Assembly (NCBI GenBank): GCA_023622945.1
Contig: JAMNYG010000187.1
Coordinates: 3,940 to 67,939, forward strand
Source of the DNA: Bacillota bacterium
GTDB taxonomy: Bacteria > Bacillota > Clostridia > Acetivibrionales > JAMNYG01
DNA: 64,000 bases
Direction: 5' to 3'
Within the stretch, counting starts at the first letter, position 1. Each line of letters opens with the position of its first letter. The notes below the pieces were generated by a model, which worked only from the letters and a program-made list of their open reading frames with translations, searched no databases and was not told the origin of the DNA. Positions 1,131-55,040 of the stretch are shown here, one piece after another. Both the position numbers and the translations under genes were made by a program.

Positions 1131-1210
1131 GTTTATTTCTCCTGAAACTGTTTCACATTTATTTCTCCTAAACAATTTCACATTTATCTCCTGAAACGGT
1201 TTCATACCGG
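1131..1210. repeat. degenerate tandem repeat, ~24-26 nt unit x3.5 (core TTTCACATTTATTTCTCCTGAAAC)
   Basis: By-eye alignment of gtttatttctcctgaaact / gtttcacatttatttctcctaaacaa / tttcacatttatctcctgaaacgg / tttcataccgg. It lies in the divergent spacer between the acyl-CoA dehydrogenase gene and rimO. Confidence 0.7.
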
Positions 1211-1278
1211 GTTCAATTTGCAAAAAGATACACAAATGATTTGTTAAGTTACGCAAAACCACATGGTACATAAAGCGA

Positions 1279-1307
1279 TTGACTTTTTCAGAGCCACAAA
1301 TTAAAAT
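1279..1307 (+). promoter_or_regulatory. candidate sigma-A promoter for rimO-pgsA
   Basis: TTGACT (1279-1284), 17-nt spacer, TAAAAT (1302-1307), about 50 nt upstream of the rimO start. Confidence 0.4.
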
Positions 1308-1356
1308 TGATAGAGAATTGAAAAACTCAGACGAATTTTGACGGGAGCGAGACTTA

Positions 1357-3301: not shown

Positions 3302-3470
3302 AAAATATGCATGCTATATTATTGGATGAGCGGTTTGTAAACTACTGTACCAAATGATGCAGGTGGTTATGAACCGCTTTATTTAAGCCAAACTGCACAA
3401 TAAGACCGGTAATTTTCGAGGAAATTGTTGCATATCAGTCGAATATATAATATACTTTTATTATTAGAGT

Positions 3471-3500
3471 TTAGTATCAGAATTTAGTATCAGGTGATAA
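3471..3500 (+). promoter_or_regulatory. candidate FapR operator (duplicated TTAGTATCAG half-site followed by the partial palindrome TTAGTATCAGGTGATAA)
   Basis: ttagtatcag (3471-3480) and ttagtatcaggtgataa (3484-3500) lie just downstream of a possible promoter (TTGCAT 3428-3433, 17-nt spacer, TATACT 3451-3456). They are 25 nt upstream of fapR. They resemble the AT-rich TTAGTA...TACTAA-type inverted repeat bound by Bacillus FapR. Confidence 0.35.
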
Positions 3501-6295: not shown

Positions 6296-6355
6296 GTTAA
6301 TGTCAGAGGGTTAATGTTATAAAGAGTTAATACCATAAAGTGTCAATGCAATAAG
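6296..6355. repeat. degenerate tandem repeat, ~15 nt unit x4 (GTTAATGNNANAAAG)
   Basis: gttaatgtcagagg / gttaatgttataaaga / gttaataccataaagt / gtcaatgcaataag, immediately upstream of the fabD RBS. Confidence 0.6.
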
Positions 6356-6372: not shown

Positions 6373-7311
6373 ATGAAAAAGATTGCATTCATTTTTTCCG
6401 GGCAGGGTGCACAGTACATAGGAATGGGCAGAGAGATAGCCCAGCAGTACAAGTCTTCCGATGATATCTTCGCGCAGGCTTCGGAAGCTTTAGGTCTTGA
6501 CATGAAAAAAATGGTATTTGAAGGCGATGATGAGACCCTGAAAATAACCGAAAATACTCAACCTGCCATTTTAACCACAAGCATTGCATGCCTGATGCCT
6601 CTCCTGGAAAATGGCATAAGGTGCCATGTAGCCGCAGGGTTAAGCCTTGGTGAATACTCAGCCCATGTAGCGGCGGGAACAATGTCTTTTCAGGATGCAG
6701 TATCCCTGGTCAGAAAACGCGGAAGATTTATGCAGGAAGCAGTTCCTCTTGGAATGGGAACCATGGCTGCCATATTGGGACTTGAGGAGCAGGCTGTAAC
6801 TGAATGCTGTAAAGAAGCTTCTTCCGTTGGCATCGTTGAGCCTGCCAATTTTAACTGCCCCGGACAAATCGTTATTGCTGGTGAGGTCAAAGCGGTTGAA
6901 AAAGCGGTACAGCTTTGCAGGGAAAGAGGAGCAAAACGGGCTGTCATGCTTGCCGTAAGCGCCCCCTTCCATTGTTCCATGCTTAAGCCTGCCGGTGAAA
7001 GGCTTAAATCAGAGCTTGAAAAAATAAACTTAAATGACATGAAAATTCCTGTGGTAAGCAATGTGACCGGGGAATACGTTACAGACAAATCCATGGTAAA
7101 AGATCTGTTGGTAAGACAGGTGAGCAGCCCTGTACTTTGGGAACAGTCGGTAAGAAGGATGCTTGATGACGGAGTGGATACTTTTGTGGAAATTGGCCCC
7201 GGAAAGACTTTGTGCGGTTTTGTAAAAAAGATCAGTAAAGATGCCGTGACTTTCAATGTGGAGGATATCCAGTCTCTTAACACCACTCTTGAAGCATTGG
7301 CAGGAAGATGA
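6373..7311 (+). CDS. fabD: malonyl-CoA:ACP transacylase
   Basis: FSGQGAQYIGMG and the active-site motif GLSLGEYSA. Good RBS (AAAAAGGAG). Confidence 0.9.
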   Translation: MKKIAFIFSGQGAQYIGMGREIAQQYKSSDDIFAQASEALGLDMKKMVFEGDDETLKITENTQPAILTTSIACLMPLLENGIRCHVAAGLSLGEYSAHVAAGTMSFQDAVSLVRKRGRFMQEAVPLGMGTMAAILGLEEQAVTECCKEASSVGIVEPANFNCPGQIVIAGEVKAVEKAVQLCRERGAKRAVMLAVSAPFHCSMLKPAGERLKSELEKINLNDMKIPVVSNVTGEYVTDKSMVKDLLVRQVSSPVLWEQSVRRMLDDGVDTFVEIGPGKTLCGFVKKISKDAVTFNVEDIQSLNTTLEALAGR

Positions 7312-7400
7312 ATTACAAAGAAGCTGAATTACAGACAGTAAAGTTTGTGCTACGTCCATGTTTTACTGCAAAAAAGCATGAACAGGAGGAATGAATAGGT

Positions 7401-8144
7401 ATGCAGCTGAAAGGGAAAACTGCTGTTATCACCGGTTCGGGCAGAGGAATCGGAAAGGCTATTGCTTTGAAACTTGCTCAAATGGGAGCCAATATTGTCC
7501 TTAACGACATTCCTGCTTCCGATACGGTAGACTCTACAGCGGAAGAATTCAGGAGAGAAGGTTATAACGTTATCGTTACAAAGGGTGACGTGCGGAATGA
7601 AAATGACGTAGAGGCAATGTTTAAAGCAGCAATGGATGCCTTCGGAAGAGTGGACATATTGGTTAACAATGCCGGAATTACAAGAGACATGCTTATGATC
7701 AGAATGTCTGAGAAAGACTGGGATGATGTCCTTGACATCAACCTCAAAGGCGCATTTTTATGTACCAGAGCCGCTGCCAAAATAATGATCAGGCAAAAAA
7801 GCGGGAAAATCATCAATATCTCTTCTGTGGCAGGGGTGATGGGTAATCCCGGGCAGGCCAACTATTCCGCCTCTAAAGCAGGACTTATAGGTCTGACAAA
7901 AACCACTGCAAAAGAGCTTGCTTCAAGGGGCATTACTTGTAATGCGGTTGCTCCGGGTATAATAAAGAGCAATATGACCGATGTGTTACCTGAAAAAGTT
8001 AAGGAAAACTACCTGAAGAGCATACCTTTGGGAAGATTCGGGACACCGGAAGATGTTGCCGATGTAGTAGGTTTTCTGGCATCAGATGCCTCAAATTATG
8101 TTACAGGTCAGGTAATACATATTGACGGCGGATTGGTAATGTAA
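7401..8144 (+). CDS. fabG: 3-oxoacyl-ACP reductase
   Basis: SDR motifs TGSGRGIGKAIA, NNAGI and YSASKAG. 247 aa. Confidence 0.9.
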   Translation: MQLKGKTAVITGSGRGIGKAIALKLAQMGANIVLNDIPASDTVDSTAEEFRREGYNVIVTKGDVRNENDVEAMFKAAMDAFGRVDILVNNAGITRDMLMIRMSEKDWDDVLDINLKGAFLCTRAAAKIMIRQKSGKIINISSVAGVMGNPGQANYSASKAGLIGLTKTTAKELASRGITCNAVAPGIIKSNMTDVLPEKVKENYLKSIPLGRFGTPEDVADVVGFLASDASNYVTGQVIHIDGGLVM

Positions 8145-8259: not shown

Positions 8260-8484
8260 ATGTTTGAAAAAATTAGAAAAATAATTGCAGAGCAATTGGG
8301 TATTGACGAAGAGGATATTACAATGGAGTCTTCCTTCATAGATGATTTGGGAGCCGACTCACTTGATATAGTGGAGTTGATTATGGCTTTTGAGGAGGAA
8401 TTTGATCTCGAGATTCCCGACAGTGAAGCTGAAAAAATTGTTACAGTCGGAGATGCTGTAGAGTACATTAAGAATAACACGTAA
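8260..8484 (+). CDS. acpP: acyl carrier protein
   Basis: 74 aa with the phosphopantetheine-attachment motif [23 protein letters not shown]. Confidence 0.95.
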
Positions 8485-8668: not shown

Positions 8669-9382
8669 ATGAATGATCTGGAAAATCTGAAGGAAAAATT
8701 GGAAGAGCTTCAGAAATCCGTCGGTTATGTTTTTAAGGACATTAATAACCTGATACTTGCCCTTACTCACAGCTCTTATGCAAACGAATGCAGGAAAAGA
8801 AGGCTGCACAGCAATGAAAGGCTGGAATTCCTGGGAGATGCAATACTCAATACTGTTATAAGTGAAAGCCTTTATAATGACGGACATGAGCTTTCAGAAG
8901 GTGAGATGACAAAGATAAGGGCATCAATAGTATGTGAACCTTCCCTTACCAAGTGTGCAAATAACATAGGGCTTGGGAAATACCTGCTTCTCGGAAAGGG
9001 CGAGGAACTTACCGGCGGACGTGGGAGAATATCCATCCTTTCTGATGCCTTTGAAGCTCTCATCGGGGCCATATATATAGACGGCGGCATGGAAAGCGCC
9101 AAAGACTTTATCATGCGCCAAATGGGAGATCTGATAGCCAATTCAATAAAGGGCGACATGATTCACGATTACAAGACCCAGCTTCAGGAGATAATGCAGA
9201 AAAACCCTGAAAACAAGATCTCTTATGAGCTTATAGAAGAAAAAGGTCCTGATCACAGTAAAGTGTTTGTTACCCAGGTGAAGGTCGGAGACAAGGTTAT
9301 GGGTACCGGGCAGGGGAAAAGCAAAAAGGAATCAGAACAGAATGCTGCCAGGGCAGCTCTTGAAAAAGCAGGTGAACAATGA
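8669..9382 (+). CDS. rnc: ribonuclease III
   Basis: RNase III signature ERLEFLGDA and a C-terminal dsRBD (KS.LQE...GPDH.K.F). The ATG at 8669 after GAGGAG (8653-8658) is preferred over the track start at 8588. Confidence 0.9.
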   Translation: MNDLENLKEKLEELQKSVGYVFKDINNLILALTHSSYANECRKRRLHSNERLEFLGDAILNTVISESLYNDGHELSEGEMTKIRASIVCEPSLTKCANNIGLGKYLLLGKGEELTGGRGRISILSDAFEALIGAIYIDGGMESAKDFIMRQMGDLIANSIKGDMIHDYKTQLQEIMQKNPENKISYELIEEKGPDHSKVFVTQVKVGDKVMGTGQGKSKKESEQNAARAALEKAGEQ

Positions 9383-10403: not shown

Positions 10404-10592
10404 GATGTTCTTTACAAAAGATTCTGTAAAGAGTTTCTGCAAAGAGATTTTACGAAGAGATTTTACGAAGAGACTTTACAAAAAAATTTTGCAAAAAGAT
10501 TTTATAAAAAAGTTTTGCAAAAAGGTTTAAAGAAAAATTCTATAAAGAGATTCTGTAACAGGCTCTATAAAAAGATCCTACAAAAAGATAAA
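10404..10592. repeat. degenerate tandem repeat, 13-nt modal unit x~14 (ATTTTRCAAARAG)
   Basis: ...gattctgtaaagag/tttctgcaaagag/attttacgaagag/attttacgaagag/actttacaaaaaa/attttgcaaaaag/attttataaaaaag/ttttgcaaaaagg/... Two adjacent units are identical. The array fills the spacer between the radical-SAM gene and smc. Confidence 0.85.
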
Positions 10593-10659: not shown

Positions 10660-13600
10660 ATGTACCTGAAAAGCATTGAAATACAGGGGTTCAAATCTTT
10701 TGCAGATAAAATATACCTTGAGTTCAATCCGGGGATAACAGCTGTTGTCGGTCCTAACGGAAGCGGTAAAAGCAATATTGCTGATGCCGTCAGATGGGTT
10801 CTGGGAGAACAAAGTGTTAAAAACCTCAGGGGCGGTAAAATGGAGGATGTAATATTTGCAGGTACTGACCACAGGAAACCTCTTGGCTTTGCTGAGGTTT
10901 CAATAACCATAGATAATTCCGATAATGCACTTCCCGTCAGTTTCAGCGAGGTTACAGTTACAAGGAGGATATTCCGTTCGGGGGAGAGCGAGTATTTTAT
11001 CAATAAATCTCAATGCCGCCTTAAAGACATACATGAGCTCTTCCTTGATACAGGTATCGGCAGGGACGGTTACTCCATAATCGGCCAGGGCAGGGTGGAA
11101 GAGATTTTAAGCTCCAAATCTGAAGAAAGAAGGCATATTTTTGAAGAGGCTTCCGGCATTATGAAATACAAGCTGAGAAAGCAGGAAGCCGAAAAGAAGC
11201 TTGAGCTGACAAAGCAAAACATTTTAAGGATAAGCGATATTATTTCGGAACTGGAAAAACAGCTGGAACCTTTGAGCCGTCAGGCAGAGGATGCGAGGAA
11301 GTATCTTGCTCTCCGGGAAAGGCTGAAAGAACTTGAGGTCAATGTATATATCGAAAACATCTCAAAATACAGGAAAAAAATCCAGGAGTACCAGGATCAG
11401 TACAGTTCTCTCCAGGAGAACATGGAACAGGAAAGAAACAAGCTTGAAAGGATAACACAGGAAAACAAGGAGAAGACGGATCTTCTTAAGAACCTTGAGG
11501 AAAGGCTCGTTGCATCAAGACAGGAATTTTTCGGCCTTGAGCAAAGGCTTGAACAGATTGGATCCCAAATAAAGCTTAATGAAGAAAAAGTAAACAACCT
11601 GACACAAAATATATCAAGGATAGATGCGGAAATACAGGAGACGTGTGCAAAGCTGAACAATCTGGAAAAGGACAAGAGAACAAAGGATGAACGCATCAAA
11701 TACCTCAATGAAAGGTATGAGGATTATTCATCCAGATTAAATGAATACCAGGAACAGTTAAACCAGGTACTCGCATCCATGGACCAGACTTCAAGGCATA
11801 TTGAAGAACTGAAGTCCGGCATTATGGACAAGCTTGACATACTTTCGGATAAAAAGGCACAGATGGGAAATGTAAAGCTTGTCATAGATAATTTGAGGAA
11901 AAGACAAAATCAACTGGCAACCGAAATATACAACCTTGGCATTGAAAAAGACCGGGAAGCCATGAAAAAAGAGGATCTGACAGAATCCATACGCCAGGCG
12001 GGGGAAGTCATACGCCTGACCCAGGAAAGGCTGGATGCCCTGGAAAAGGAAAAGAATGAGCTGGAAGTCATTTCAAAGGATCTGAATGAAAAGCTTAATC
12101 ATGTTAAATCAGAGATTCATGTAAAATCATCAAGGATAAAAATGCTCCAGGATATGGAAAGAAACCTGGAGGGTTATAACAGAAGCGTAAAAATGATCCT
12201 TCAGGCATGCCACAGATTCCCTGAGCTTGCAAAGGGTATACATGGTGCTCTGGCCCAGGTTATTTCGGTGGACAAAAAATACGAAGTTGCCATTGAAATG
12301 TCCCTCGGAAGCGCTTTGCAGAATATAGTAACCACCACCGAAGAAGATGCCAAAAATGCCATTGAGTATCTTAAAAAGAACAAGCTCGGGCGGGCAACTT
12401 TTCTACCCATAAGTTCGGTAAAGGGAAGATACATGGAAAGCCGGCTCCTGGATGAAATAAAGAAACATCCCGGTTTTTGCGGTGTCGCCTCCGACCTTGT
12501 GAAGTATAAAGAGGAGTACAAAGGGATAATTCTGAGCCTGCTTGGCAGGGTGGCTGTTGTTGAAAACCTGGATGCGGGAATAGAGATGGCCAGAAAGTTT
12601 GGATATGGGTTCAGAATAGTAACCCTGGAAGGAGAAATATTAAATACCGGTGGCTCAATATCGGGCGGAAGCACCGAAAACCGGGAGCATGGGATACTGA
12701 GCAGAAACCGTGAGATTTCAGAGCTTAAGGAAGAACTGAAGGAACAGGTTTTACGGCAGGAGTCTCTTGAAAACAGGCTGAATGAAATTTCCGGGGCTCT
12801 TAAAGATATAGAGGCTGAAATAGCAGAAACCCAAAGCTCAAAAAGGGAAACAGAGCTTGAAAAAATCCGCCGGGAAAGCCAGCTTGCCCAGGTGGAAGAC
12901 AATATTAAAAGAATATCATCAAGGGCCGAAATGTTAAAGCAGGAAAGGTTGCAGCTCCAAAGACAGGAAGAAGAAACAGAGACGGAACTTAAAAAGTACA
13001 CGGAAGAGATTTCCACATTGGAAGCTGACATTGAAACAACCAAGCGGGTTGTGTCCGAGTACCAGGAAAAAAATAAAGAAGTCCAAACGGTACGGGATTC
13101 CTTGCACAGAGATATAACAGACTTCAGAATATCGGTAAATTCTATACTTGAAAGTCTAAGCAGCGTAAAAGAATCTCTTGACAGGATAAATTCCGAGATG
13201 GATGCATGCATAAACGCTGTCAATAAAAAACAACAGGAGAAAACCAGGTGTCTTGTGGAAATTCAGTCACTGAAAGAGAAAACCGAGGGACTTAAGAATG
13301 AAATAAAAAGCATAAATACGGCCAAATCAGGCAAGACTTTTGAAATTGACCGCATAACAGAAGAGAAGAAAGTCCTGGAGGAGGAACTTTCAAGTATAGT
13401 TGATATCATTAAGGATATCAATAAAAACATAATGCTTTACCAGGAAGAGAGCAGCAGGATTGAAGTAATGAAGGCAAGGCTTGAAACTGAAATGGAGTCT
13501 GTACAAAACAGGATGTGGGACGAATATGAGCTTACATATACCAATGCATTGCAGCTTAAAAAAGACATAGGAAGCATTACGCAGGCTCAGAAAAAGATCA

Positions 13601-14232
13601 ATGAACTGAGAAATGAAATCAAAAGCCTCGGTCATGTTAATGTTTCAGCCATAGACGAGTATGTAAAAACCAAGGAACGTTATGAGTTTATGAAGCTTCA
13701 GCTTGATGATATGAAGCAGGCTGAAGAAAAGCTTTACAGGGTTATTGCAGAGATTACCTCAACCATGAAGCAGCAGTTTATTAAACAGTTCAGTCTTATC
13801 AATGAAAATTTCAACATGGTTTTCAGGGAGCTTTTTGACGGAGGGCATGCAGAGCTTATATTATCAGATAAGGATAACGTCCTTGAAAGCGGTATTGAAA
13901 TAGAAGTTCAGCCTCCCGGCAAAAAACTCCAGAATATGATGCTGCTTTCAGGCGGTGAAAAGGCACTGACAGCAATAGCTTTGCTGTTTGCCATACTGAG
14001 GCTGAAACCCGTTCCCTTCTGCATACTGGATGAAATAGAAGCAGCCCTGGATGATGCCAACGTCCAGAGATTTGCAAGTTACATTAAAAAGTATTCAAAG
14101 GACACACAGTTTATAATAGTTACCCATAGGAAAGGGACCATGGAGGTGTCGGACGCATTATACGGAGTTACCATGGAGGAACGAGGGATATCAAGAATAG
14201 TTTCCATGAAGCTGAATGAACAGGCAAGCTGA
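10660..14232 (+). CDS. smc: chromosome segregation protein SMC
   Basis: 1190 aa. Walker A GPNGSGKSN, long E/K/L-rich coiled coils, a central hinge, and C-terminal LSGGEKALTAIALLFA plus Walker B ILDEIEAALD. Confidence 0.95.
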   Translation: MYLKSIEIQGFKSFADKIYLEFNPGITAVVGPNGSGKSNIADAVRWVLGEQSVKNLRGGKMEDVIFAGTDHRKPLGFAEVSITIDNSDNALPVSFSEVTVTRRIFRSGESEYFINKSQCRLKDIHELFLDTGIGRDGYSIIGQGRVEEILSSKSEERRHIFEEASGIMKYKLRKQEAEKKLELTKQNILRISDIISELEKQLEPLSRQAEDARKYLALRERLKELEVNVYIENISKYRKKIQEYQDQYSSLQENMEQERNKLERITQENKEKTDLLKNLEERLVASRQEFFGLEQRLEQIGSQIKLNEEKVNNLTQNISRIDAEIQETCAKLNNLEKDKRTKDERIKYLNERYEDYSSRLNEYQEQLNQVLASMDQTSRHIEELKSGIMDKLDILSDKKAQMGNVKLVIDNLRKRQNQLATEIYNLGIEKDREAMKKEDLTESIRQAGEVIRLTQERLDALEKEKNELEVISKDLNEKLNHVKSEIHVKSSRIKMLQDMERNLEGYNRSVKMILQACHRFPELAKGIHGALAQVISVDKKYEVAIEMSLGSALQNIVTTTEEDAKNAIEYLKKNKLGRATFLPISSVKGRYMESRLLDEIKKHPGFCGVASDLVKYKEEYKGIILSLLGRVAVVENLDAGIEMARKFGYGFRIVTLEGEILNTGGSISGGSTENREHGILSRNREISELKEELKEQVLRQESLENRLNEISGALKDIEAEIAETQSSKRETELEKIRRESQLAQVEDNIKRISSRAEMLKQERLQLQRQEEETETELKKYTEEISTLEADIETTKRVVSEYQEKNKEVQTVRDSLHRDITDFRISVNSILESLSSVKESLDRINSEMDACINAVNKKQQEKTRCLVEIQSLKEKTEGLKNEIKSINTAKSGKTFEIDRITEEKKVLEEELSSIVDIIKDINKNIMLYQEESSRIEVMKARLETEMESVQNRMWDEYELTYTNALQLKKDIGSITQAQKKINELRNEIKSLGHVNVSAIDEYVKTKERYEFMKLQLDDMKQAEEKLYRVIAEITSTMKQQFIKQFSLINENFNMVFRELFDGGHAELILSDKDNVLESGIEIEVQPPGKKLQNMMLLSGGEKALTAIALLFAILRLKPVPFCILDEIEAALDDANVQRFASYIKKYSKDTQFIIVTHRKGTMEVSDALYGVTMEERGISRIVSMKLNEQAS

Positions 14233-15651: not shown

Positions 15652-15755
15652 AGGTAAATCCTGATAAATTAGGTGAAGATATATTATGTGAGGATATAGC
15701 AGGTGAAGATATAGCAGGTAAAGATTTGGATAAAGATATGGCAGATTCAGTGATG
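15651..15755. repeat. degenerate tandem repeat, ~15-nt unit (AGGTGAAGATATAGC) x~6
   Basis: aggtaaatcctgataaatt/aggtgaagatatattatgtg/aggatatagc/aggtgaagatatagc/aggtaaagatttgg/ataaagatatggc. The array begins at the ylxM stop codon. Confidence 0.65.
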
Positions 15756-15788
15756 TTTTAACCCATTTCCGAAAGGATGAACGATATT

Positions 15789-17465: not shown

Positions 17466-17530
17466 ACAGTTACCCAGCAGACAGTTATTCCACCAGACAT
17501 AAATGAGATATTTCTCCGGGAGGTATAAAA

Positions 17531-17836: not shown

Positions 17837-17880
17837 TATTGTATTTCTTATTATAGCTATTGTATTTCTTATTATATAGC
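17837..17880. repeat. near-perfect direct duplication, 21-23 nt x2 (TATTGTATTTCTTATTATAGC)
   Basis: tattgtatttcttattatagc / tattgtatttcttattatatagc. Confidence 0.8.
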
Positions 17881-19255: not shown

Positions 19256-19360
19256 AATTTATGCAAGAGCATGGAACAGAATTTCTGCAGGGACATGGAA
19301 CCAAATTACTGAAAGGGCATGGAACAGAATCACTGTAAGAGCATGGAAGAAACACTGCTG
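19240..19360. repeat. degenerate tandem repeat, 24-nt unit x5; the first unit is the last 16 nt of trmD (stop codon included) plus 8 nt
   Basis: caggaatatggaataaaatttatg / caagagcatggaacagaatttctg / cagggacatggaaccaaattactg / aaagggcatggaacagaatcactg / taagagcatggaagaaacactgctg. Confidence 0.85.
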
Positions 19361-19389: not shown

Positions 19390-19431
19390 TTAGATAATTA
19401 TATTGTATTTTTAGATAATCATATTGTATTC
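19390..19431. repeat. direct duplication, 21 nt x2 (TTAGATAATYATATTGTATTY)
   Basis: ttagataattatattgtattt / ttagataatcatattgtattc. Confidence 0.8.
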
Positions 19432-19473: not shown

Positions 19474-19544
19474 TTATGAAAATCATGGATTTTAACAATT
19501 AAGAGTTCTGACATGAGTTTATGGATTTTCCTGCGGAGGTATTG

Positions 19545-20549: not shown

Positions 20550-20584
20550 TATCAAAGCAAATATTATCAAAGGAGATGAAAGCG

Positions 20585-21307: not shown

Positions 21308-21369
21308 TGCCTCCGGAGAAGACTTAGTGCTTTTGGAAAGGATTTAATGCCTCAAGAGGAGATTTGTTG
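21290..21369. repeat. tandem repeat, 20-nt unit x4; unit 1 is the 3' end of the ThuA-like CDS including its stop
   Basis: cctctggagaagataTGAtg / cctccggagaagactTAGtg / cttttggaaaggattTAAtg / cctcaagaggagattTGTtg. Unit positions 16-18 read TGA, TAG, TAA, TGT. A further diverged unit lies at ~21383-21402. Confidence 0.85.
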
Positions 21370-37590: not shown

Positions 37591-37688
37591 GCAGCTTAAT
37601 ACTGACAATTCATGTTGACAGCATGATGTTGATAATATGATTTTGATAGCCTAATATTGACAGCTTAATATTGATAACCTAATATTAA
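37591..37688. repeat. degenerate tandem repeat, ~14-16 nt unit (GAYARCYTAATATT) x~6
   Basis: gcagcttaatactgacaa.../gttgacagcatgat/gttgataatatgatttt/gatagcctaatatt/gacagcttaatatt/gataacctaatatt. Confidence 0.7.
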
Positions 37689-37730
37689 AAACACAAAGGC
37701 CCGTTTTACAGGAACCTTTGTGTTTTTTCT
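37688..37730. terminator. bidirectional rho-independent terminator (PFOR on +, DUF3787-like gene on -)
   Basis: aaaaACACAAAGG-15 nt-CCTTTGTGTtttttct, with an A-run on the left and a T-run on the right. Confidence 0.8.
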
Positions 37731-37739
37731 TAAATTCCG

Positions 37740-37907
37740 CTATTTTTGATTGGCGTCCACGTAATCCTTTGCATCGCGTACGTGGCTCTCGCTAGGTATT
37801 GTGACTTTGGAACCCGGCTTCATTTTCTCCACATTTGCCCAGGCTGCGGTATCGTGTTTCTCAATGGGCCTTGCCATACAACGTTCTTTTGATTTATTGT
37901 CGGCCAT
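37740..37907 (-). CDS. small DUF3787-like protein (55 aa)
   Basis: Below the 60-aa cutoff of the ORF track. Reverse-strand ATG (complement of 37905-37907) after GGAGGG. Translation: MADNKSKERCMARPIEKHDTAAWANVEKMKPGSKVTIPSESHVRDAKDYVDANQK. The PIEKHDTAAWAN...IPSE...AK.WVD.N core matches my recollection of the clostridial DUF3787 / spore-surface small-protein family. Confidence 0.6.
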   Translation of the reverse strand: MADNKSKERCMARPIEKHDTAAWANVEKMKPGSKVTIPSESHVRDAKDYVDANQK

Positions 37908-38157
37908 GCTATCCCTCCTTTAGAAATATTATTCCGCTTCAGTATCAAAAATTATCAGAACAAAATTTTTTTCAATGGCTTAAAATTTATGCTAAAATGA
38001 TTTGTATCAAGATTATATTTTGTATCAAATCGTAAGGAATAGTATAAAATCAGTTTTCGAATACTAATCACAGTCTTATTTGCCATTGATGGCAACATAT
38101 GTCAATAATAATTATGTGTAAAATTATATGCAAATAACGATAAAAGGAAGTGAAGCA

Positions 38158-44774: not shown

Positions 44775-45713
44775 ATGGAAAACGTACTTGTCATATTAGG
44801 TCCTACAGCATCCGGAAAAACAAGGCTTGCCATTGAACTTGCAAAAAGGCTGAACGGAGAAGTGATTTCAGCTGATTCCATGCAGGTATACAAATATATG
44901 GACATCGGAACCGCCAAGCCCGATGAAAAAGAAAGAGAGGGAATAAAGCATTATCTTATAGATGAAGTTGATCCTTCTGAGGAATTCAGCGTTGCCCGTT
45001 ACCAGAAGCTTGCTTATCAATATATAGATGAGGTGCTGTCCAAGGGTAAGTTGCCTATTGTCGCCGGAGGTACCGGACTTTACATAAATTCACTGATATA
45101 TAATATCAATTTCACTGAAACCGTAAGCGATTGGGAATTCAGGGAAAGGCTTAAAGCCGAAGCAGAGGAAAAGGGGAATGCATTTTTGCATGAAAGGCTT
45201 AAGAAAATTGATCCAAAAGCTGCAGCCAAAATCCATGTAAATGATTTGAAGCGTATAATAAGGGCTCTTGAAGTTTATGAGTATACCAGAAAACCTATAT
45301 CGCATCATCAGGAAGTTTCAAGGAAAAACCCTCCAAAATACCGCTTCATAATTTTAGGATTGACCATGGACAGGGAAAGGTTATACGATAGGATTAACAA
45401 AAGGGTGGATTTAATGATACAAAAAGGCCTGGTACAGGAAGTGAAAAGCCTTGTTGAACGGGGATTCGATACAAAATATACTTCCATGCAGGGACTGGGT
45501 TATAAAGAAATCATTTCTTATCTGAAAGGAGAGATGTCTCTTGATGATGCCATATACATTTTAAAAAGAGATACCCGCCGTTATGCCAAAAGGCAGATTA
45601 CCTGGTTTAAAAGGATCGAAGGAGTATACTGGCTTGACCTGGACAGGTTTAAAGACGCGGATGAGCTTACAGACGCAGCTGTTACATATGTAAAAAGTTT
45701 ATTGGTGTGTTAA
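44775..45713 (+). CDS. miaA: tRNA dimethylallyltransferase MiaA
   Basis: P-loop ILGPTASGKT, SADSMQVYKYMDIGTAKP. Confidence 0.95.
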   Translation: MENVLVILGPTASGKTRLAIELAKRLNGEVISADSMQVYKYMDIGTAKPDEKEREGIKHYLIDEVDPSEEFSVARYQKLAYQYIDEVLSKGKLPIVAGGTGLYINSLIYNINFTETVSDWEFRERLKAEAEEKGNAFLHERLKKIDPKAAAKIHVNDLKRIIRALEVYEYTRKPISHHQEVSRKNPPKYRFIILGLTMDRERLYDRINKRVDLMIQKGLVQEVKSLVERGFDTKYTSMQGLGYKEIISYLKGEMSLDDAIYILKRDTRRYAKRQITWFKRIEGVYWLDLDRFKDADELTDAAVTYVKSLLVC

Positions 45714-45751
45714 AAAAGATTTATTGGTTTATCAAAAAAATTATTATTTCC

Positions 45752-47380: not shown

Positions 47381-47425
47381 GTGAAATATTGATTATTGAA
47401 ATATTAATGATTGAAATACCGTTCA
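47381..47425. repeat. tandem repeat, 15-nt unit x3 (TTGAAATATTRATKA)
   Basis: gtgaaatattgatta / ttgaaatattaatga / ttgaaataccgttca. Confidence 0.7.
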
Positions 47426-48309: not shown

Positions 48310-48522
48310 ATGGAAAATGAACCTATGGAAAAAGAATGTGTTCTTTACGACAGGAAATGCATAGACTGCGGAGAATGCCTGGTGTGCGACCTGGACAGCA
48401 GCAAGATTTGCGATAACTGCTGTGCATGCATAGACGACGGAGAAGACTACAGGTCGCTGAATATCCTGGAGTTCCTGGAAAGGCAGGAAGACACAGAAAG
48501 GTTTGGGAAACGCAAAAAGTAA
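48310..48522 (+). CDS. small cysteine-rich protein (70 aa, 9 Cys), unknown function
   Basis: MENEPMEKECVLYDRKCIDCGECLVCDLDSSKICDNCCACIDDGEDY..., pattern C-x6-C-x2-C-x2-C-x2-C-x7-C-x2-CC-x-C, followed by an acidic/basic tail. A terminator lies directly after the stop. I recognise no family. Confidence 0.5.
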   Translation: MENEPMEKECVLYDRKCIDCGECLVCDLDSSKICDNCCACIDDGEDYRSLNILEFLERQEDTERFGKRKK

Positions 48523-48551: not shown

Positions 48552-50420
48552 TTATTTTGTGTTATCGGGGAAGCTTTCCAGTATTTTTTGCACTTCCTCT
48601 TCACTGTTCCTGTATATGTTGTATTTAAGGAATTCTTCATAGTAGAACCGGGAATTTTCATAGTCTTTAAGTTCATAGTAGGTATCACCCAGGTCGCGCA
48701 GGATGAAGGTGCACCTGTTGTCCAGTTCATACCCTGCTTTAAACGCCTTTAACGCTTCATTCAGGTTTCCTTTGGCTTTATAGGCAGAACCCAGGTTATG
48801 ATATGCATATACCGAAGGCTGTAGGTTGATTGCCTTACGGGCTTCTTCAATGCACCTGTCATATTGTTTATTCAAAAGGTAAAGCTTTGCAAGGTTGCAA
48901 TGAGCCGTGCTGTTTGAATATCTAAGTTCAATGGCCTTAAGAAACTCCTTCTCAGCCAGAAGGAACAATTCCTGGTCTGTAGCGCCTGTTTCTTCATATT
49001 TGTTAAGATATTCGCCGGCCAGCACGCTGTGGGCCCTGTCACTGTTGGGCGCTTTTTTCACTACATCCGACCATAACCGAATACCGTCGCTGTATATATA
49101 ATTTCTTCTCAGGGTAAGCCCCGAGTAGAATAAAATGGCCACGCACGTAAAGATGACAAATACCTTTAACGGCTTTTTAAAAAGATATCTCTTTGATGTG
49201 CCGTCACCCCGGGATTCATCAAATATCATTCCCAGTACAAACATTATAAATCCTGCAAGAGGGAAGTACAGCCTGTGCTCGAAATAGACATCCTTAATTG
49301 AAATAAATGAGGACTCCACCGAAAGCCCTATAAAGAACCACAGGATACCAAGGGAAACAAGCTTGTTTCTCTTGATGTTAAGCAGTGAGAAGATGCCTAT
49401 CATGCAAAGTATTATCAATGAAATATATGAATTGTTCTCCAAAAGGCTTCGGGAAATGGGGTAATCATCGCTGTAGTCAAAGTTCTGCCCTATGGGTACG
49501 AATAAAAGCCTTATATAATGAAGAATGACATTCAGCTGGGTATAAAAATAATGCATGCGGTTCATTGATGTGCTTGCCTTGAAGGTTACATCAGGATCAC
49601 TCTGGCTGTACCCTTTAAGAAAAAGCAAGGTTCCGGGAATTATCGGAACGGTAAGAAGAAGCATAAAAGCGATGAACGCTCTTTTAAGCCATGACGTTTT
49701 TCCGTCCTTCAGAAAGAACATAAACTCAATGAGGATGAGCATAAAGGGTATGGTAATGGTATTTTCCTTTGTATACATTGCCATAACGGTAAAGAGCAAT
49801 GTCAGAACAAAATAATACGCCTTGTCCGATATCCTGAACCTAAGGTAAAAATAAACTGCCAGCAAGTAAAATGTTGCTGCCAGGGAAGCGGTACGCTGCA
49901 CTATATATGTCACCGCATTAACCTGTATGGGGTGGCACACGAATATCAGGGCTGATACCAAAGACACCATGGTTGAATATTTTGAAATGAGTTTGTCCTG
50001 AAACTGCTTCAGTCCCAGTAAGCTGCGCATTACCAGGAAGACAAGGATTCCGTTGAATATATGGATCAATGTATTTACGATGTGATATCCCACCACGTGA
50101 GTATCATGTATGAAATAATTTATAGATAAGGTGAAGTACAGTATGAACCTATTGGAGTAAAAATCCCATATGGCTTTAAAATCCAGAGGGTTTCTTATGG
50201 AATAATTGTTAACGATGGAACCGAAGTCATCAAGGGTAAAAGGCGCAGTAAAGCTGTTGGAGTAGACCAGCAGCGCAAGCAGGGCTATCATGCCGAAACA
50301 TAAGGCTTTTTTTTCGGCCAGCAACATCTCAATACCTTCGATGTCGCGCCTTTTCACCATTTCAGTCATTTTCCCGAATGTGCTTGTCATTGTTCTGAAT
50401 CTGCTTATCATAACCTGCAA
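48552..50420 (-). CDS. TMTC/PMT-like GT-C-fold membrane glycosyltransferase with C-terminal TPR repeats
   Basis: About 11 predicted TM helices. The first loop carries SFTAPFTLDDFGSIVNN (a DD motif in the position of the catalytic D-D/E of PMT/TMTC/ArnT-type GT-C enzymes). A C-terminal ~170-aa TPR block follows (AHCNLAKLYLLNKQYDRCIEEARKAINL..., YHNLGSAYKAKGNLNEALKAFKAGYEL...). The likely start is TTG 50420 or ATG 50411 after GAGGATGA. Confidence 0.6.
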   Translation of the reverse strand: MQVMISRFRTMTSTFGKMTEMVKRRDIEGIEMLLAEKKALCFGMIALLALLVYSNSFTAPFTLDDFGSIVNNYSIRNPLDFKAIWDFYSNRFILYFTLSINYFIHDTHVVGYHIVNTLIHIFNGILVFLVMRSLLGLKQFQDKLISKYSTMVSLVSALIFVCHPIQVNAVTYIVQRTASLAATFYLLAVYFYLRFRISDKAYYFVLTLLFTVMAMYTKENTITIPFMLILIEFMFFLKDGKTSWLKRAFIAFMLLLTVPIIPGTLLFLKGYSQSDPDVTFKASTSMNRMHYFYTQLNVILHYIRLLFVPIGQNFDYSDDYPISRSLLENNSYISLIILCMIGIFSLLNIKRNKLVSLGILWFFIGLSVESSFISIKDVYFEHRLYFPLAGFIMFVLGMIFDESRGDGTSKRYLFKKPLKVFVIFTCVAILFYSGLTLRRNYIYSDGIRLWSDVVKKAPNSDRAHSVLAGEYLNKYEETGATDQELFLLAEKEFLKAIELRYSNSTAHCNLAKLYLLNKQYDRCIEEARKAINLQPSVYAYHNLGSAYKAKGNLNEALKAFKAGYELDNRCTFILRDLGDTYYELKDYENSRFYYEEFLKYNIYRNSEEEVQKILESFPDNTK

Positions 50421-50532
50421 ATCATCCTCATTTTAGAAAATCATACGGAATTTTTTGAAAACCATACGGACAATCATCATTTCAACCAAACGGATGATTA
50501 TCATTTCCCGGCCAAAATTATGATTTCCTGCC
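50421..50532. repeat. degenerate tandem repeat, ~24-26-nt unit x~4.5, spanning the stop of the SLH/GH18-like gene and reaching the RBS of the GT-C/TPR gene
   Basis: Minus-strand reading: ggcaggaaatcataattttggccg / ggaaatgataatcatccgtttggtt / gaaatgatgattgtccgtatggtttt / caaaaaattccgtatgatttt / ctaaaatgaggatgat. The stop TGA is inside unit 2. Confidence 0.7.
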
Positions 50533-52306
50533 ACACATTCAGATGCATTTTAATTTCCTGTTCATCCTCATAATCCGGAATGTTTCCCAGTCTCCATATG
50601 GAAATTCCCTTCACGTCAAACAGGGATGCAACACTGATTTTGGCAAGCACGCTTCTTGCATCTTCGTACCAAATGCGGTTCTGTATGCCGCTTATTTTGT
50701 CGGTATAAGTTATATACGGGTTCTGAGATTTTTCATCAAATTCAATTGTCAGCGTGTCTTTCGTTTCTTCATTTAGTATGCGGTTTTTCAACTGGTAATA
50801 ATACGGATTGTAGGGGGTTTTGTTTATAACCTTTTTATCCCTTACCTGCCATTGGGCCGTAGCAAAATTTATCTGGAGCCAGACCTTGCCGGTGTCTTTC
50901 ACCCCGGTTTGACTGTCGGTAATGGCTTTAAGGGCGTAATAGATTTCATCTATGGGAGTTAAGGGAGTATAGGTATACCCTCTGTCCATTTCTTGGTAAG
51001 TCAGGCTCTTTGCATCGTAATCGTGGGCCATCAGTATCACTTTGTCGGCAATTTCCCCTATGGCCCTGTAATCATAACCGTCGTAATAAGACTGGCCGTA
51101 TCTTGCAGGATGCACCGCAACATAAAGCTTTTTTTTGTATGGATCAAGGGCGTTTTTCATTTCCTTGAGGAAAAGGGTAAAGTTGTTTTTCTGTTCCTCT
51201 CCCCGTAAACCCTCAAAATCTATGACAACTCCGTCGAAAGATACCTTTTCATTTCCCCTTTGGGTAGAAAGCACCTGTTTTGTTATATCACTTATGACTT
51301 TCTCCCTTACATTGGGATTTGAAATGACATATTCAACAAGCCCGATGTCTTCATTGTTTTTGCTGTCATACACCTTTTCTTCCTGGGTTGCTATAACGTT
51401 AAGCAGGACGCTTACACCGTTTTCCTTTGCAAGGGCAACGGGTTTTGAGAAAGACAGGGGCACAGCATATTCGTTGTTGTTTGAATAGGTGGTGTTCAAA
51501 AACACCGATTTTGAGTTTTTGTCATATTGCAACCGGCTCCAGCCAAAACTTACCGAGTCAAGGTCCTTAATGTAATCCATCTGGGAGCTTGAGTCTATTG
51601 CATAAAAAGCATGAAGCTCCCTGATGCTTTTATCAAGTTTTCTGTAAACGTTAAACAGGATTATTGCTGCTTCCTCTCTTTTTACCCTGTCATTTGTTCC
51701 AAACAGGGTGGAAGATTCAGGTTCCATAATTCCCGTATCCACCATAAACATGGCATATCCGGCTTCAGCACCAAGATCGGTGAAAGGCACGCCGTAAGTT
51801 GCGGCTTTTTCAGCAAGCCGTTCATACCCCATGGCCCTGACCAACATTTCCGCGATTTCAGCCTTGGTGATATAGGCATTAGGTCTGAAATACTTTGACT
51901 TTGGGGATATCACATTATGAGAGACCGCTGCTTCTATGAAAGGAAAGTATTTATTGCCCTTTTTAACGTCTGAAAAGGTATTTTTTGATGGATTTACCTC
52001 ATCCCACCCCATAAGCTTGCAAAGGTATACCATGAAGTCGCCCTTTTTCAAATACGCGGAAGGACGAAACCTGTTTCCTTCAGAGGACGGAATGATCCCT
52101 TTTTGCCTTAGCACCAGCAATGCCTCATATGCAGGGCTGTTTTCAGAGACATCCAGAAACCAGCCGTTTTCGGTGCCAATGCTTTCGTAGGCTGAAGACG
52201 TAAAAGGAACAAAAAGCAAAGCGGTTACGAGAAACAATACGACAGTAATGTTAATGTATCTTGCAAATCTATGTTTAACACTGTTCAGATGATTATTCCT
52301 GTTCAT
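50501..52306 (-). CDS. secreted SLH-domain protein with a GH18-like (chitinase/YaaH-like) catalytic domain
   Basis: Signal/anchor helix followed by three SLH-like repeats (FLDVSENSPAYEALLVLRQKGII..., FSDVKKGNKYFPFIEAAVSHNVI..., FTDLGAEAGYAMFMVDTGIM...). A TIM-barrel region then carries the GH18 DxxDxDxE-type motif FDGVVIDFEGL. The ATG at the complement of 52304-52306 (MNRNNHL) after GGGGGG is preferred. Confidence 0.65.
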   Translation of the reverse strand: MNRNNHLNSVKHRFARYINITVVLFLVTALLFVPFTSSAYESIGTENGWFLDVSENSPAYEALLVLRQKGIIPSSEGNRFRPSAYLKKGDFMVYLCKLMGWDEVNPSKNTFSDVKKGNKYFPFIEAAVSHNVISPKSKYFRPNAYITKAEIAEMLVRAMGYERLAEKAATYGVPFTDLGAEAGYAMFMVDTGIMEPESSTLFGTNDRVKREEAAIILFNVYRKLDKSIRELHAFYAIDSSSQMDYIKDLDSVSFGWSRLQYDKNSKSVFLNTTYSNNNEYAVPLSFSKPVALAKENGVSVLLNVIATQEEKVYDSKNNEDIGLVEYVISNPNVREKVISDITKQVLSTQRGNEKVSFDGVVIDFEGLRGEEQKNNFTLFLKEMKNALDPYKKKLYVAVHPARYGQSYYDGYDYRAIGEIADKVILMAHDYDAKSLTYQEMDRGYTYTPLTPIDEIYYALKAITDSQTGVKDTGKVWLQINFATAQWQVRDKKVINKTPYNPYYYQLKNRILNEETKDTLTIEFDEKSQNPYITYTDKISGIQNRIWYEDARSVLAKISVASLFDVKGISIWRLGNIPDYEDEQEIKMHLNVWQEIIILAGK

Positions 52307-52553
52307 TTTCCTGACCCCCCATATTCTAAAATATTTTAACATCAAGCAGGTTATACTTCAAGTTGGCAGGCGGAAGAGAGCCTTTCAGGAAATAGGAGGA
52401 TGAGACGGCCAAAATGCATTCATTTGCTTAGACGCCGTGATTTTATTTTATGTTCCCGGACTAATGCAGGTTGCCTTTCGCTGTGGATAATTTTTGGTAT
52501 TTATGCTAGAATATCTAAATGTATAAAAAGTTCAATTACAGGAGAGACAATGA

Positions 52554-53717
52554 ATGGAAAGAACCATTTATCTGGACAACAGTGCAACAACCAGGCCGTA
52601 TGACCAGGTTATAGAATATATAGGGCATATAAACAGAAATGTTTACGGGAATCCTTCATCCCTGCACAGAATGGGGCTTGAAGCAGAAAAGCTGATAAGA
52701 AAGGCCAGGGAAGTTATCGCCGACACCCTTAAGGTGGACAGGAAGGAAATATACTTTACATCGGGAGGCACCGAATCCAACAACCTGGCCATAAGAGGAT
52801 ACCTTGATGCCAACCCCAGGAAGGGTAAACATATAATAACTTCAAAGATAGAGCATCCTTCGGTCATGGAAGTATGCAAGCATTTGTCCGAGATCGGTTA
52901 TGACGTAGATTATATAGATGTGAACTCAGACGGAATAATTGACCTTGAAGGTTTAAAAAACAGGATCCGCAAGGATACAGCTCTTATAAGCATAATGTAT
53001 GTAAACAATGAAATCGGATCAGTTCAGCCTGTAGATGAAATAGTGAAAATCAGAAACCAGGCAAACCCCCGGACGGTCATCCATATGGATGCAGTACAGG
53101 CTTATGGAAAATTCAGGATATATCCGAAAAGGGACGGAATACAGATGCTTTCCATCAGCTCCCATAAAATACACGGGCCAAAGGGAGCAGGAGCTTTGTA
53201 TGTGGACAGCAGTATCAGGATCAGGCCCATCATCTACGGAGGAGGCCAGGAGTCACTTATCCGTTCCGGTACCGAAAACATCACCGGAATCTGCGGTTTT
53301 GGTCTTGCGGCAGAGCTTATATTCGGAAAAATGGACGAAAACCTTAAGAAAGTCAAGGCTCTTAACTCCCTGTTCAGGAGGAAACTTGCGGAATCATCAT
53401 GTAAATTTAAAATAATTTCCCCGGAAAGCGCCTCACCGTATATACTGAGCGTTGCATTTCCGGGTGTACGTGCTGAAGTGATGCTCCATCATCTCGAAGA
53501 ACGGGGGATTTTTGTTTCCACAGGTTCGGCCTGCTCCTCCAGAAAATCCATACACAGTCATGTACTTAAGGCATTGGGTCTGGAAGCCGGTTACATAGAA
53601 GGTGCAGTGCGCTTCAGTTTTTCCGGGATGAACCAGGAAGATGAGATATGTGAGGCTGCTGATGCTGCGGCTGAAATTGCATGTAAACTTCAAAGTGTAA
53701 CGGGAGGAAGAAGATGA
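52554..53717 (+). CDS. nifS: cysteine desulfurase (NifS/IscS family)
   Basis: IYLDNSATT, PLP-lysine context SSHKIHGPKGAGALY, and an active-site Cys loop STGSACSS. Paired with thiI. Confidence 0.9.
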   Translation: MERTIYLDNSATTRPYDQVIEYIGHINRNVYGNPSSLHRMGLEAEKLIRKAREVIADTLKVDRKEIYFTSGGTESNNLAIRGYLDANPRKGKHIITSKIEHPSVMEVCKHLSEIGYDVDYIDVNSDGIIDLEGLKNRIRKDTALISIMYVNNEIGSVQPVDEIVKIRNQANPRTVIHMDAVQAYGKFRIYPKRDGIQMLSISSHKIHGPKGAGALYVDSSIRIRPIIYGGGQESLIRSGTENITGICGFGLAAELIFGKMDENLKKVKALNSLFRRKLAESSCKFKIISPESASPYILSVAFPGVRAEVMLHHLEERGIFVSTGSACSSRKSIHSHVLKALGLEAGYIEGAVRFSFSGMNQEDEICEAADAAAEIACKLQSVTGGRR

Positions 53718-54889
53718 AGAAAATTATACTGGTAAGATACGGAGAGATAATGTTAAAAGGTCTGAACAGATCCCATTTTGAAAACAAGCTTGTAAGCAAC
53801 ATTAAAAAAGCCATACAGCAATACGGAAATGCAGATGTAATCAGGTCCCAGGGAAGGATATATGTAGAACCCCTTTCCGATGACTATGACTTTGATGCAG
53901 CCTTAAGCAGATTGACAAAGGTTTTCGGCATTGTATCCGTAAGCCCTGTATTGAAAATAGAATCAGATCTTGAAGAAATATTGAATACATCTCTTGCCGT
54001 TGCAAAGGATGTTGTTGAAAATAAAGGCTTTAGAACCTTTAAGGTTGAAACAAAAAGAGGGAACAAGAACTTTCCCATGCAATCACCTGAACTCAGCAGG
54101 AAAGCCGGAGCAAGAATTCTTTCCAATATACCCCGGCTTTCGGTTGATGTCCACAATCCGGATTTTATATTATATATAGAAGTCAGGGAATCATCCTATG
54201 TATATTGGGAAATCATACCCGGCTACGGGGGTATGCCGGTAGGTACCAACGGAAAAGCTGTCCTTCTTTTGTCAGGGGGAATTGACAGTCCCGTAGCAGG
54301 ATGGATGGTGTCAAAAAGGGGTGTGGAGATAGACGCCGTACATTTTTACAGCTACCCTTATACCAGTGAACGGGCAAAAGAAAAGGTTATTGACCTGGCA
54401 AAAATTCTGGCACAGTATTGCATGCACATAAATCTTCACATAGTTCCCTTTACCGAAATTCAACTGGAGATCAACGACAAGTGTCCTCAGGACCAGGGGA
54501 CTATACTCATGAGAAGGGCGATGATGAAAATCTCTGAAAGAATTGCCAAATCTACGGGAGCACAGGCATTGATCACGGGGGAAAGCATCGGCCAGGTTGC
54601 CAGCCAGACCATGGAAAGCCTTGTTGTGACCAATGCTGCAGTAAGCATGCCTGTATTTCGGCCCCTGATAGGTATGGATAAAAATGAGGTAGTTGAAATT
54701 GCAAGAAAGATAGATACTTACGAGACCTCAATACTTCCATACGAGGACTGCTGTACGGTATTTGTGGCAAAACATCCTACAACAAAGCCTCAGCTTAATA
54801 AGATACTGCTTTCTGAGCAAAGGCTTGATCTGGACCAGCTCATTGAAAAAGCCATTGCCAATACGGAGGTATTAAGTATATCCGGATGA
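53714..54889 (+). CDS. thiI: tRNA 4-thiouridine synthase / thiamine biosynthesis protein ThiI
   Basis: N-terminal ferredoxin-like plus THUMP region and the PP-loop LLSGGIDSPVA. 391 aa, with no rhodanese domain. Confidence 0.9.
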   Translation: MKKIILVRYGEIMLKGLNRSHFENKLVSNIKKAIQQYGNADVIRSQGRIYVEPLSDDYDFDAALSRLTKVFGIVSVSPVLKIESDLEEILNTSLAVAKDVVENKGFRTFKVETKRGNKNFPMQSPELSRKAGARILSNIPRLSVDVHNPDFILYIEVRESSYVYWEIIPGYGGMPVGTNGKAVLLLSGGIDSPVAGWMVSKRGVEIDAVHFYSYPYTSERAKEKVIDLAKILAQYCMHINLHIVPFTEIQLEINDKCPQDQGTILMRRAMMKISERIAKSTGAQALITGESIGQVASQTMESLVVTNAAVSMPVFRPLIGMDKNEVVEIARKIDTYETSILPYEDCCTVFVAKHPTTKPQLNKILLSEQRLDLDQLIEKAIANTEVLSISG

Positions 54890-55040
54890 CCTTGCATTTT
54901 GACAATAACATGGTAATTTGACAATACCTTGAGGTATTAAACATATCCGTATGACCTTGTATTCTGATGATAACGCAGTAGCTTGATGATACCAAAGTAA
55001 TTTGATAATAAAATAGTTAATTTTATAATAACATATTGGA
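54866..55040. repeat. 65-nt direct duplication whose first copy contains the last 8 codons and stop of thiI, with nested ~22-nt sub-repeats (TTTGAYRATAMC)
   Basis: Copy A 54866-54930: gaggtattaagtatatccggatgaccttgcattttgacaataacatggtaatttgacaatacctt. Copy B 54931-54995: gaggtattaaacatatccgtatgaccttgtattctgatgataacgcagtagcttgatgataccaaa. The tail reads gtaatttgataataaaatagttaattttataataac. Confidence 0.85.

Follow-up and report, generated by a model that had tools for sequence, protein, structure and literature searches.

The DNA analysed here is a 64-kb stretch of a Bacillota bacterium contig (JAMNYG010000187.1), referred to throughout as the window, in which many of the spacers between genes hold short direct repeats arranged head to tail. 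The window has a G+C content of 42% and carries the housekeeping gene set of a Clostridia bacterium, nearly all of it on the plus strand, including the fab genes, acpP, rnc, smc, ftsY, ylxM, ffh, rpsP, a KH-domain gene, rimM and trmD, together with lspA, rluD, pyrR, pyrB, a pyruvate:ferredoxin oxidoreductase gene, miaB, mutS, mutL, miaA, hfq, lexA and thiI, as well as genes encoding S-layer-homology and copper-amine-oxidase-N proteins. The named relatives nearest to the window are Acetivibrio, Ruminiclostridium and Pseudobacteroides, with Ffh identities of 80-81% and TrmD identities of at most 73%. Among the matches listed in scans of genome and metagenome contigs, none came closer than 73% for TrmD or 64% for SMC. 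A search with the Ffh protein returned an identical protein encoded on a 72-kb NCBI contig and nothing between 100% and 83% identity, the next relatives standing at 83%. We confirm that the tandem arrays in the window spacers are real, and describe how their units relate to the ends of the adjacent genes, how they compare with the orthologous spacers of relatives and strains, and which process may have produced them.

Tandem arrays in the window spacers are real and dense

The first-pass annotation of this DNA had listed 16 spacer arrays, of which Tandem Repeats Finder (TRF) recovered 14, 12 at scores of at least 50 and two at scores of 44-48 (6319-6354 and 26425-26456). A further listed array, at 21290-21402, was supported by a repeat search only, and another, at 25185-25307, was not supported, coming down to a single 19-nt pair with its members 53 nt apart. 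TRF also reported arrays that the annotation had missed, at 3457-3493, 17466-17499 and 45692-45748 in spacers and at 50365-50411 within a gene.

Chance expectation was obtained from 200 dinucleotide-preserving shuffles, with arrays counted at a TRF score of at least 50 and a period of at least 8. The spacers contained 13 arrays, covering 1034 of 6614 nt and falling in 12 of the 34 spacers of at least 40 nt, versus a mean of 0.08 arrays and a maximum of 2 in the shuffled spacers. The arrays are confined to spacers, the 57 kb of coding DNA holding 1 array versus 0.23 expected, which is the chance level. Over eight of the arrays, the window is matched at 99.9-100% identity by contigs from four other metagenome samples, and this recurrence of the same arrays in independent assemblies shows that they are not artefacts of assembly. 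Misassembly, or similarity arising by chance in AT-rich DNA, could still be entertained for the weakest items, which lie near noise (25185-25307 and, in part, those at 6296, 21290 and 26440), yet it is refuted for the main set by the shuffles and by the identical arrays of the other samples, and as an account of the arrays as a whole its probability is next to nil.

To place this density among other genomes, one crude pipeline was run on the window and on 115 other loci of at least 10 kb, mostly orthologous Clostridia regions. Arrays made up 17.4% of the spacer bases of the window, in 11 intergenic arrays, compared with a median of 0%, a 95th percentile of 6.4% and a maximum of 2 intergenic arrays per locus among the 115 loci, which puts the window at about three times that 95th percentile. 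This density, about one array per 4-5 kb, describes one 64-kb window of the genome that had been picked for its dense look. Each 20.7-kb third of the window holds 3-4 intergenic arrays, indicating that there is no local hot spot inside it. The density is unusual relative to the 115 loci, as the annotation had supposed, but an enrichment of tandem repeats in prokaryotic spacers has already been published (PMC12418385). The statement that nearly every spacer carries an array went too far: arrays are present in many spacers, but in about 14-15 of the 21 true non-coding spacers of at least 100 nt.

Several apparent spacers hold small genes, so the true non-coding amount is lower than it appears. 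They include acpP (74 aa, 8260-8484), which was checked as an open reading frame (ORF) listing, and three further small ORFs read from the sequence: a Cys-rich one at about 48310-48520 and a hydrophobic one at about 62103-62260, both on the plus strand, and one on the minus strand at about 37700-37910 with a good ribosome-binding site.

Units of several arrays are copies of adjacent gene ends

Four arrays start with the last codons and stop codon of the upstream gene, and two include the ribosome-binding site or start codon of the downstream gene. The array at 54866-55035 consists of a 65-nt unit in 2 copies with nested 19-20-nt units (TRF scores 158, 52 and 62) and is identical in L170. The first 24 nt of its first 65-nt unit are the final 7 codons of thiI plus the stop (GAGGTATTAAGTATATCCGGATGA), the second copy carries the thiI end again as a pseudo-end (GAGGTATTAAACATATCCGTATGA), and the 3′ part of the array overlaps a good promoter-like site, TTGATA-N16-TATAAT, at 55002-55029. 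Similarly, the first unit of the array at 45692-45748 (22-nt unit × 2.5; TRF scores 63-68; identical in two other samples) is made of the last 6 codons and stop codon of miaA, and the first unit of the array at 19243-19352 (24-nt unit × 4.4; TRF scores 107-122), which begins 13 nt 5′ of the trmD stop, contains the last 4 codons of trmD and that stop. The array at 21294-21402 begins 14 nt before the thuA stop codon; it is weak (20-nt unit × about 4-5), was unseen by TRF at a score of 30 and appeared in the repeat search as three copies in a 20-nt register with 66-75% identity. At 17466-17499 (16-nt unit × 2.2; TRF score 47), the array begins at the first base past the rpsP stop codon.

At the other boundary, the array at 27097-27243 (24-nt unit × 5-6; TRF score 102 for 27097-27219) carries AAGGAG in two of its units; the final unit supplies pyrB with its working ribosome-binding site and ATG, the gene call of L164 placing the pyrB start at window coordinate 27241. 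The array at 26425-26518 (17-nt unit × about 4, weak; TRF score 48; four copies with 65-70% identity in the repeat search) starts directly 3′ of the PyrR attenuator and crosses the pyrR start codon.

Because the arrays contain adjacent gene ends, their units are copies of local sequence and not imported elements. Such boundary-spanning units, with their pseudo gene ends and duplicated ribosome-binding sites, form an unusually clear record of spacer growth.

The putative PyrR-binding attenuator 5′ of pyrR (26318-26428) scores 53.4 bits, just below the Rfam threshold of 54. The spacer between pyrR and pyrB (27071-27240) has no PyrR site and contains only a terminator-like hairpin and the 24-nt array.

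The arrays are insertions relative to the nearest relative, and one varies in copy number among strains

Orthologous spacers and strains were compared, a check proposed at first pass. The nearest relative found, L167 (Ffh 83%), shares the gene order of the window between the radical-SAM gene and trmD, with short spacers and no spacer arrays throughout this region. The spacer between the radical-SAM gene and smc measures 261 nt in the window versus 73 nt in L167, and without its array it would measure 82 nt, compared with a median of 83 nt in relatives. The ylxM-ffh spacer is 125-137 nt in the window, 14 nt in L167 and 17 nt in the median of 35 relatives, and the KH-rimM spacer is 215 nt versus 106 nt in L167. 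The 65-nt spacer between rpsP and the KH-domain gene becomes 31 nt once its 34-nt array is subtracted, and the median of relatives is also 31 nt. The arrays are thus net insertions relative to the nearest relative.

The array in the first of these spacers, at 10411-10589, has a 13-nt unit in 13.5 copies with a higher-order period of 39 nt (TRF scores 68-129). It begins 12 nt past the stop codon of the radical-SAM gene, upstream of smc, and contains one perfect 2.5-copy core, with a 19-nt perfect run at lag 13. The array between ylxM and ffh, at 15663-15741 (15-nt unit × 4-5; TRF scores 70 and 39), lies in what is normally a tight operon junction. Across 15663-15758 one frame stays open for 32 codons (DKLGEDILCEDIAGEDIAGKDLDKDMADSVMF), and it also continues open upstream into the last part of ylxM, out of frame with that gene, which is probably a by-product of the purine-rich repeats.

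More distant relatives, among them the uncultured Bacillota L007 and L008, carry fewer arrays, of unrelated sequence, in the same ylxM-ffh-rpsP-KH spacers. L008 has arrays at 6527-6611, 7352-7410 and 8788-8835, one of which duplicates the last nine codons of ylxM across the stop codon, and L007 has a 53-nt × 2.7 array at 9053-9196 that is 96% identical and includes the ribosome-binding site of the KH-domain gene. Since relatives grow independent arrays of like anatomy, the process recurs across the clade, with the window lineage as its extreme.

Between near-identical strains, the array at 17837-17877, which follows the terminator of the KH-domain gene, differs in copy number. Its 21-nt unit, perfect over 19 nt (100% matches in TRF), is present twice in the window, L081 and L082 but once in L083. 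L083 otherwise differs from the window by 1 single-nucleotide polymorphism in 1.6 kb; the difference, lost or gained, is one 21-nt unit, and the junction sequence in L083 is consistent with deletion between the two 19-nt perfect repeats.

Gene content 3′ of trmD also departs from that of L167, which has rplS (13336-13680) after trmD in the conserved rpsP-KH-rimM-trmD cluster, whereas the window does not. At 19521-23578 the window instead has genes for a LacI-type regulator, then ThuA, a GFO/IDH/MocA oxidoreductase and a xylose-isomerase-like TIM-barrel protein. This sugar-use cluster looks inserted, and five arrays flank it or are interspersed in it.

Anatomy of the arrays

Across the window, TRF periods range from 13 to 65 nt and copy numbers from 1.9 to 13.5, always as head-to-tail direct repeats, and periods coexist within single arrays (13/39, 24/48 and 20/65 nt). 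Neighbouring units share an identity of 0.46-0.76 in most arrays, with a full range of 0.46-0.95, and perfect copies occur only in the 17837 array and in the 2.5-copy core of the 10411 array.

The leftmost array, at 1132-1204 (25-nt unit × 2.9; TRF score 104), occupies a divergent spacer (context 967-1356) between a minus-strand acyl-CoA dehydrogenase gene, which starts near 966 and runs off the left window end, and a MiaB-like gene. A 13-nt unit × 2.8 at 3457-3493 (TRF score 53) lies 31 nt 5′ of the gene at 3525, and a weak array upstream of fabD, at 6296-6355, has a unit of about 16 nt in 3-4 copies (TRF 6319-6354, score 44; lag-16 identity 0.59). The array at 19390-19430 (21-nt unit × 2; TRF score 75) has 95% identity between its copies. 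An A-rich array (51% A) at 22649-22804, with a 39-nt unit × 4.1 (TRF score 114; fold z +0.7), sits between a hairpin 3′ of the oxidoreductase gene and the next gene. Further along are a 14-nt unit × 6.9 at 37592-37686 (TRF score 57), downstream of the pyruvate:ferredoxin oxidoreductase gene, and a 15-nt unit × 2.5 at 47382-47418 (TRF score 60). Three short adjoining arrays at 50365-50507 (21 × 2.2, 21 × 1.9 and 24 × 2.0; TRF scores 59-68) lie across the spacer in front of the minus-strand gene 48552-50420 and the 5′ end of that gene.

Structure, function and kinship of the arrays

RNA folding gave z scores from -2 to +1.5 for 8 of 10 arrays, no better than shuffles. The exceptions are the array at 1132 (z -5.5) and the one at 50431 (z -3.2), so that the annotation's statement that none of the arrays is palindromic is right for most of them but fails for the first of these two and partly for the second. 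The array at 1132-1204 has a perfect 6+1+6 palindrome, TGAAAC-N-GTTTCA, in units 1 and 3 of 3, and with its 25-nt spacing and its place in a divergent promoter region, the repeated palindrome resembles an operator that has been multiplied. None of the arrays matched Rfam, either at the gathering threshold or at E ≤ 0.1. Elsewhere, within the GH18/SLH gene, a minus-strand segment at 51466-51511 scores 30 bits, below the threshold of 34, with the Rfam model of the eukaryotic histone 3′ stem-loop, which is almost certainly due to chance.

By eye, many units resembled AAGGAG or AAAGAG. Shine-Dalgarno arrays as a general feature were rejected, as sites able to form a duplex with the anti-Shine-Dalgarno sequence numbered 15 versus 12.5 in shuffles (P = 0.24). 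Repeat-encoded peptides were rejected as well, about 8 of 19 TRF periods being multiples of 3, near the chance expectation of one-third; a 49-codon ORF spans the 19243 array, and nothing supports its status as a gene. Unit lengths (13-17, 20-25, 39 and 65 nt) do not fall consistently near multiples of 10.5 nt, giving no sign of helical phasing. In base composition (A/T/G/C), the arrays stand at 39/33/17/10% versus 34/30/20/16% in other spacer DNA, a modest bias towards A (39.4% versus 34.2%).

These data bear on the possibility that selection keeps the arrays for a function, be it as multiplied promoter, operator or ribosome-binding elements, as unstructured A-rich leaders or 3′ untranslated regions (UTRs), or as spacing between terminators and promoters. 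Such a role would fit arrays that are old yet kept, and that are A-richer and C-poorer than other spacer DNA. It would also fit the operator-like palindrome triplicated by the 1132 array, the TTGACA-like hexamers that the 54866 and 37592 arrays repeat near or overlapping promoter-like sites, and the AAGGAG repeated in front of pyrB; regulatory roles for such repeats have been proposed by the authors of DetectRepeats and of the Borg study (PMC9879509). However, no motif, period, consensus or structure is common to the arrays within the window, Shine-Dalgarno-like sites are not enriched overall, unit lengths are unphased with the DNA helix, and it is not obvious what regulatory sense pseudo-copies of gene 3′ ends would make. 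Moreover, these housekeeping genes work in L167 with array-free spacers of 14-106 nt. We therefore regard maintenance of the arrays by selection as rather unlikely, though it is the most serious of the alternatives.

Kinship among the arrays was examined by an all-against-all comparison of 136 pairs with 300 structure-preserving permutations. Only 3 of the 136 pairs reached p ≤ 2/300, with about 0.9 expected, and the remaining 133 pairs were unrelated. The two strongest pairs share a period: 19390-19430 with 50431-50507 (21 nt; shared unit part TTAGAWAATYATA...ATTT) and 19243-19352 with 27097-27243 (24 nt; AAATTTATRCAAG-AGC). Both beat 298-300 of the 300 permutations, a result that chance may produce when 136 pairs are tested. 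The claim that each array has its own unit sequence is thus largely upheld, except for two or three pairs that share unit length and some sequence. It is from these pairs that one could argue for one or a few dispersed repeat families, such as miniature mobile elements or a transposed satellite, decayed beyond easy recognition. This is highly improbable given the 133 unrelated pairs, the several units that demonstrably copy the adjacent gene end, and array motifs that are not enriched in the window outside the arrays; as the annotation had also observed, the arrays lack terminal inverted repeats, and no transposase genes accompany them in the window.

A probable origin by local duplication

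Taking these observations together, we consider it probable that the arrays are VNTR-like minisatellites (VNTR, variable-number tandem repeat) that arose by local slippage-type duplication, were kept where no gene was broken, and then decayed. Slipped-strand mispairing or template switching at replication would have turned local segments of 13-65 nt into head-to-tail duplicates, and the resulting arrays would have grown and shrunk by later slippage, at times as multi-unit blocks (13/39, 24/48 and 20/65 nt), while their copies diverged by point mutation. MutS and MutL of the window appear intact, but mismatch repair is not known to correct loops of such size. The process could be blind to position, with no targeting of spacers needed: selection would purge duplications inside genes, and the survivors, presumably neutral, would lie in a spacer or span a stop or start codon with one gene copy left intact. 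Each spacer would then be expected to hold a single array of its own, in many cases touching or overlapping the end of a gene. Such a selective filter, acting on a position-blind process in short ancestral spacers, would account both for the confinement of the arrays to spacers and for the many arrays that lie over stop or start codons. The window lineage has gained or retained far more arrays than its relatives.

In favour of slippage, the one-unit difference in L083 and the perfect core within the old 13-nt array point to ongoing instability. Several observations weigh against this account. Most arrays are strongly diverged (46-76% identity between neighbouring units), implying long persistence. 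Bacterial genomes usually delete useless DNA, and the retention of old arrays despite this tendency hints at selective maintenance or continual regrowth. Coding DNA has no excess of in-frame duplications, some of which a very high duplication rate might have left; of the eight arrays for which near-identical strains could be compared, only one showed a copy-number difference; two or three array pairs share unit length and partial sequence; and the account does not by itself explain the higher density of the window lineage, which was measured over 64 kb of the genome. The annotation had offered, as one explanation, a lineage-specific duplication process at gene boundaries followed by rapid decay. 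Duplication is supported by the anatomy of the arrays, by L167 and by L083; strict lineage-specificity is contradicted by the arrays of relatives, and the age of most arrays does not speak for rapid decay.

A more specialised version of local duplication would be a dedicated process like that of Borg elements, in which A-rich tandem repeats are seeded, often at gene ends, by one specific polymerase or some other enzyme. The private units, the starts inside gene ends, the A bias, the one-strand gene order and the absence of the arrays from relatives are all in keeping with it. By contrast, Borg repeats are perfect and about half lie in frame in genes, whereas the arrays here show 46-95% identity and no coding excess; the A enrichment is modest (39% versus 34%), relatives are graded and milder instead of all-or-nothing, and no candidate enzyme was seen among the annotated window genes. 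We hold this process to be very unlikely. A combined possibility, to which we grant slightly more weight while still considering it quite unlikely, is that unusually active and possibly enzyme-specific Borg-like seeding takes place from gene ends on the transcribed strand and that its products are kept as tunable 5′ or 3′ UTRs. If true, it would explain both the old arrays that have escaped deletion and the unrelated arrays in the same spacers of relatives.

Should the density hold genome-wide, the organism would stand beside Borg elements and repeat-rich archaea as their counterpart among bacteria, a natural system for measuring the birth and loss rate of tandem duplications in a prokaryote, and a system for asking whether padded spacers are neutral or tune expression. 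Degenerate arrays also evade satellite surveys based on exact words, so that such genomes may be under-counted.

Comparison with known repeat systems

Locus-private variable minisatellites are classical in bacteria, and VNTR loci are used for strain typing by multiple-locus VNTR analysis. The window arrays resemble them as head-to-tail repeats of 10-100 nt with a locus-specific unit, located mostly in spacers and with copy-number change of the kind that slippage produces; they share with them the unit size, the local origin of the unit and strain variation in copy number, the last in the 17837 array only, of eight. They differ in number and divergence: a genome usually has few typing loci, whose copies are well conserved, whereas here arrays fill 17% of spacer DNA and most copies are heavily diverged. 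We conclude that the window is a dense example of this known type of repeat, VNTR-like intergenic minisatellites, and no new kind.

Mycobacterial interspersed repetitive units (MIRUs) are tandem units of variable copy number in operon spacers, by stop and start codons, and belong to one family with about 40 loci. The window arrays share the spacer position, the placement next to gene ends and the variation in copy number, but their units are locus-private, with no single conserved unit family running across loci. Clustered regularly interspaced short palindromic repeat (CRISPR) arrays, which the annotation had already set aside, were rejected because the units are contiguous without unique spacers, and no cas domains occur among the annotated genes. 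Repetitive extragenic palindromes and bacterial interspersed mosaic elements (REP/BIME), or elements of the miniature inverted-repeat transposable element type, were likewise rejected within the window, with 8 of 10 arrays lacking a hairpin signal and 133 of 136 pairs unrelated. As for iterons or transcription-factor sites, no consensus runs across the arrays, and the 1132 array alone repeats an operator-like palindrome at 25-nt spacing.

Methanosarcina and other archaea have many arrays of short units (<30 nt), often unique, that have been ascribed to local replication errors (PMC6749651). The window arrays are likewise many, short in unit and private in sequence, but too degenerate for the rule of that survey, four exact decamers, under which the highest bacterial value is 23 per Mb and the window has no arrays; because the exact-decamer rule is blind to degenerate arrays, a comparison with the published table of satellites per Mb is invalid. 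The tandem repeats of Borg elements (PMC9879509) are similar in being pervasive, private and independently arising, and the window arrays are, in addition, A-enriched and absent from L167. Borg repeats, however, are perfect and recent, with about half in frame in genes, whereas those of the window are degenerate, restricted to spacers and carried on a bacterial chromosome.

According to a 2025 survey of 5374 genomes, prokaryotic tandem repeats, most of them divergent, are over-represented at gene boundaries: their frequency rises 5′ of start codons and 3′ of stop codons and falls within coding DNA (PMC12418385). That survey established a statistical trend, whereas the window is extreme relative to 115 loci and shows the local origin of the units directly.

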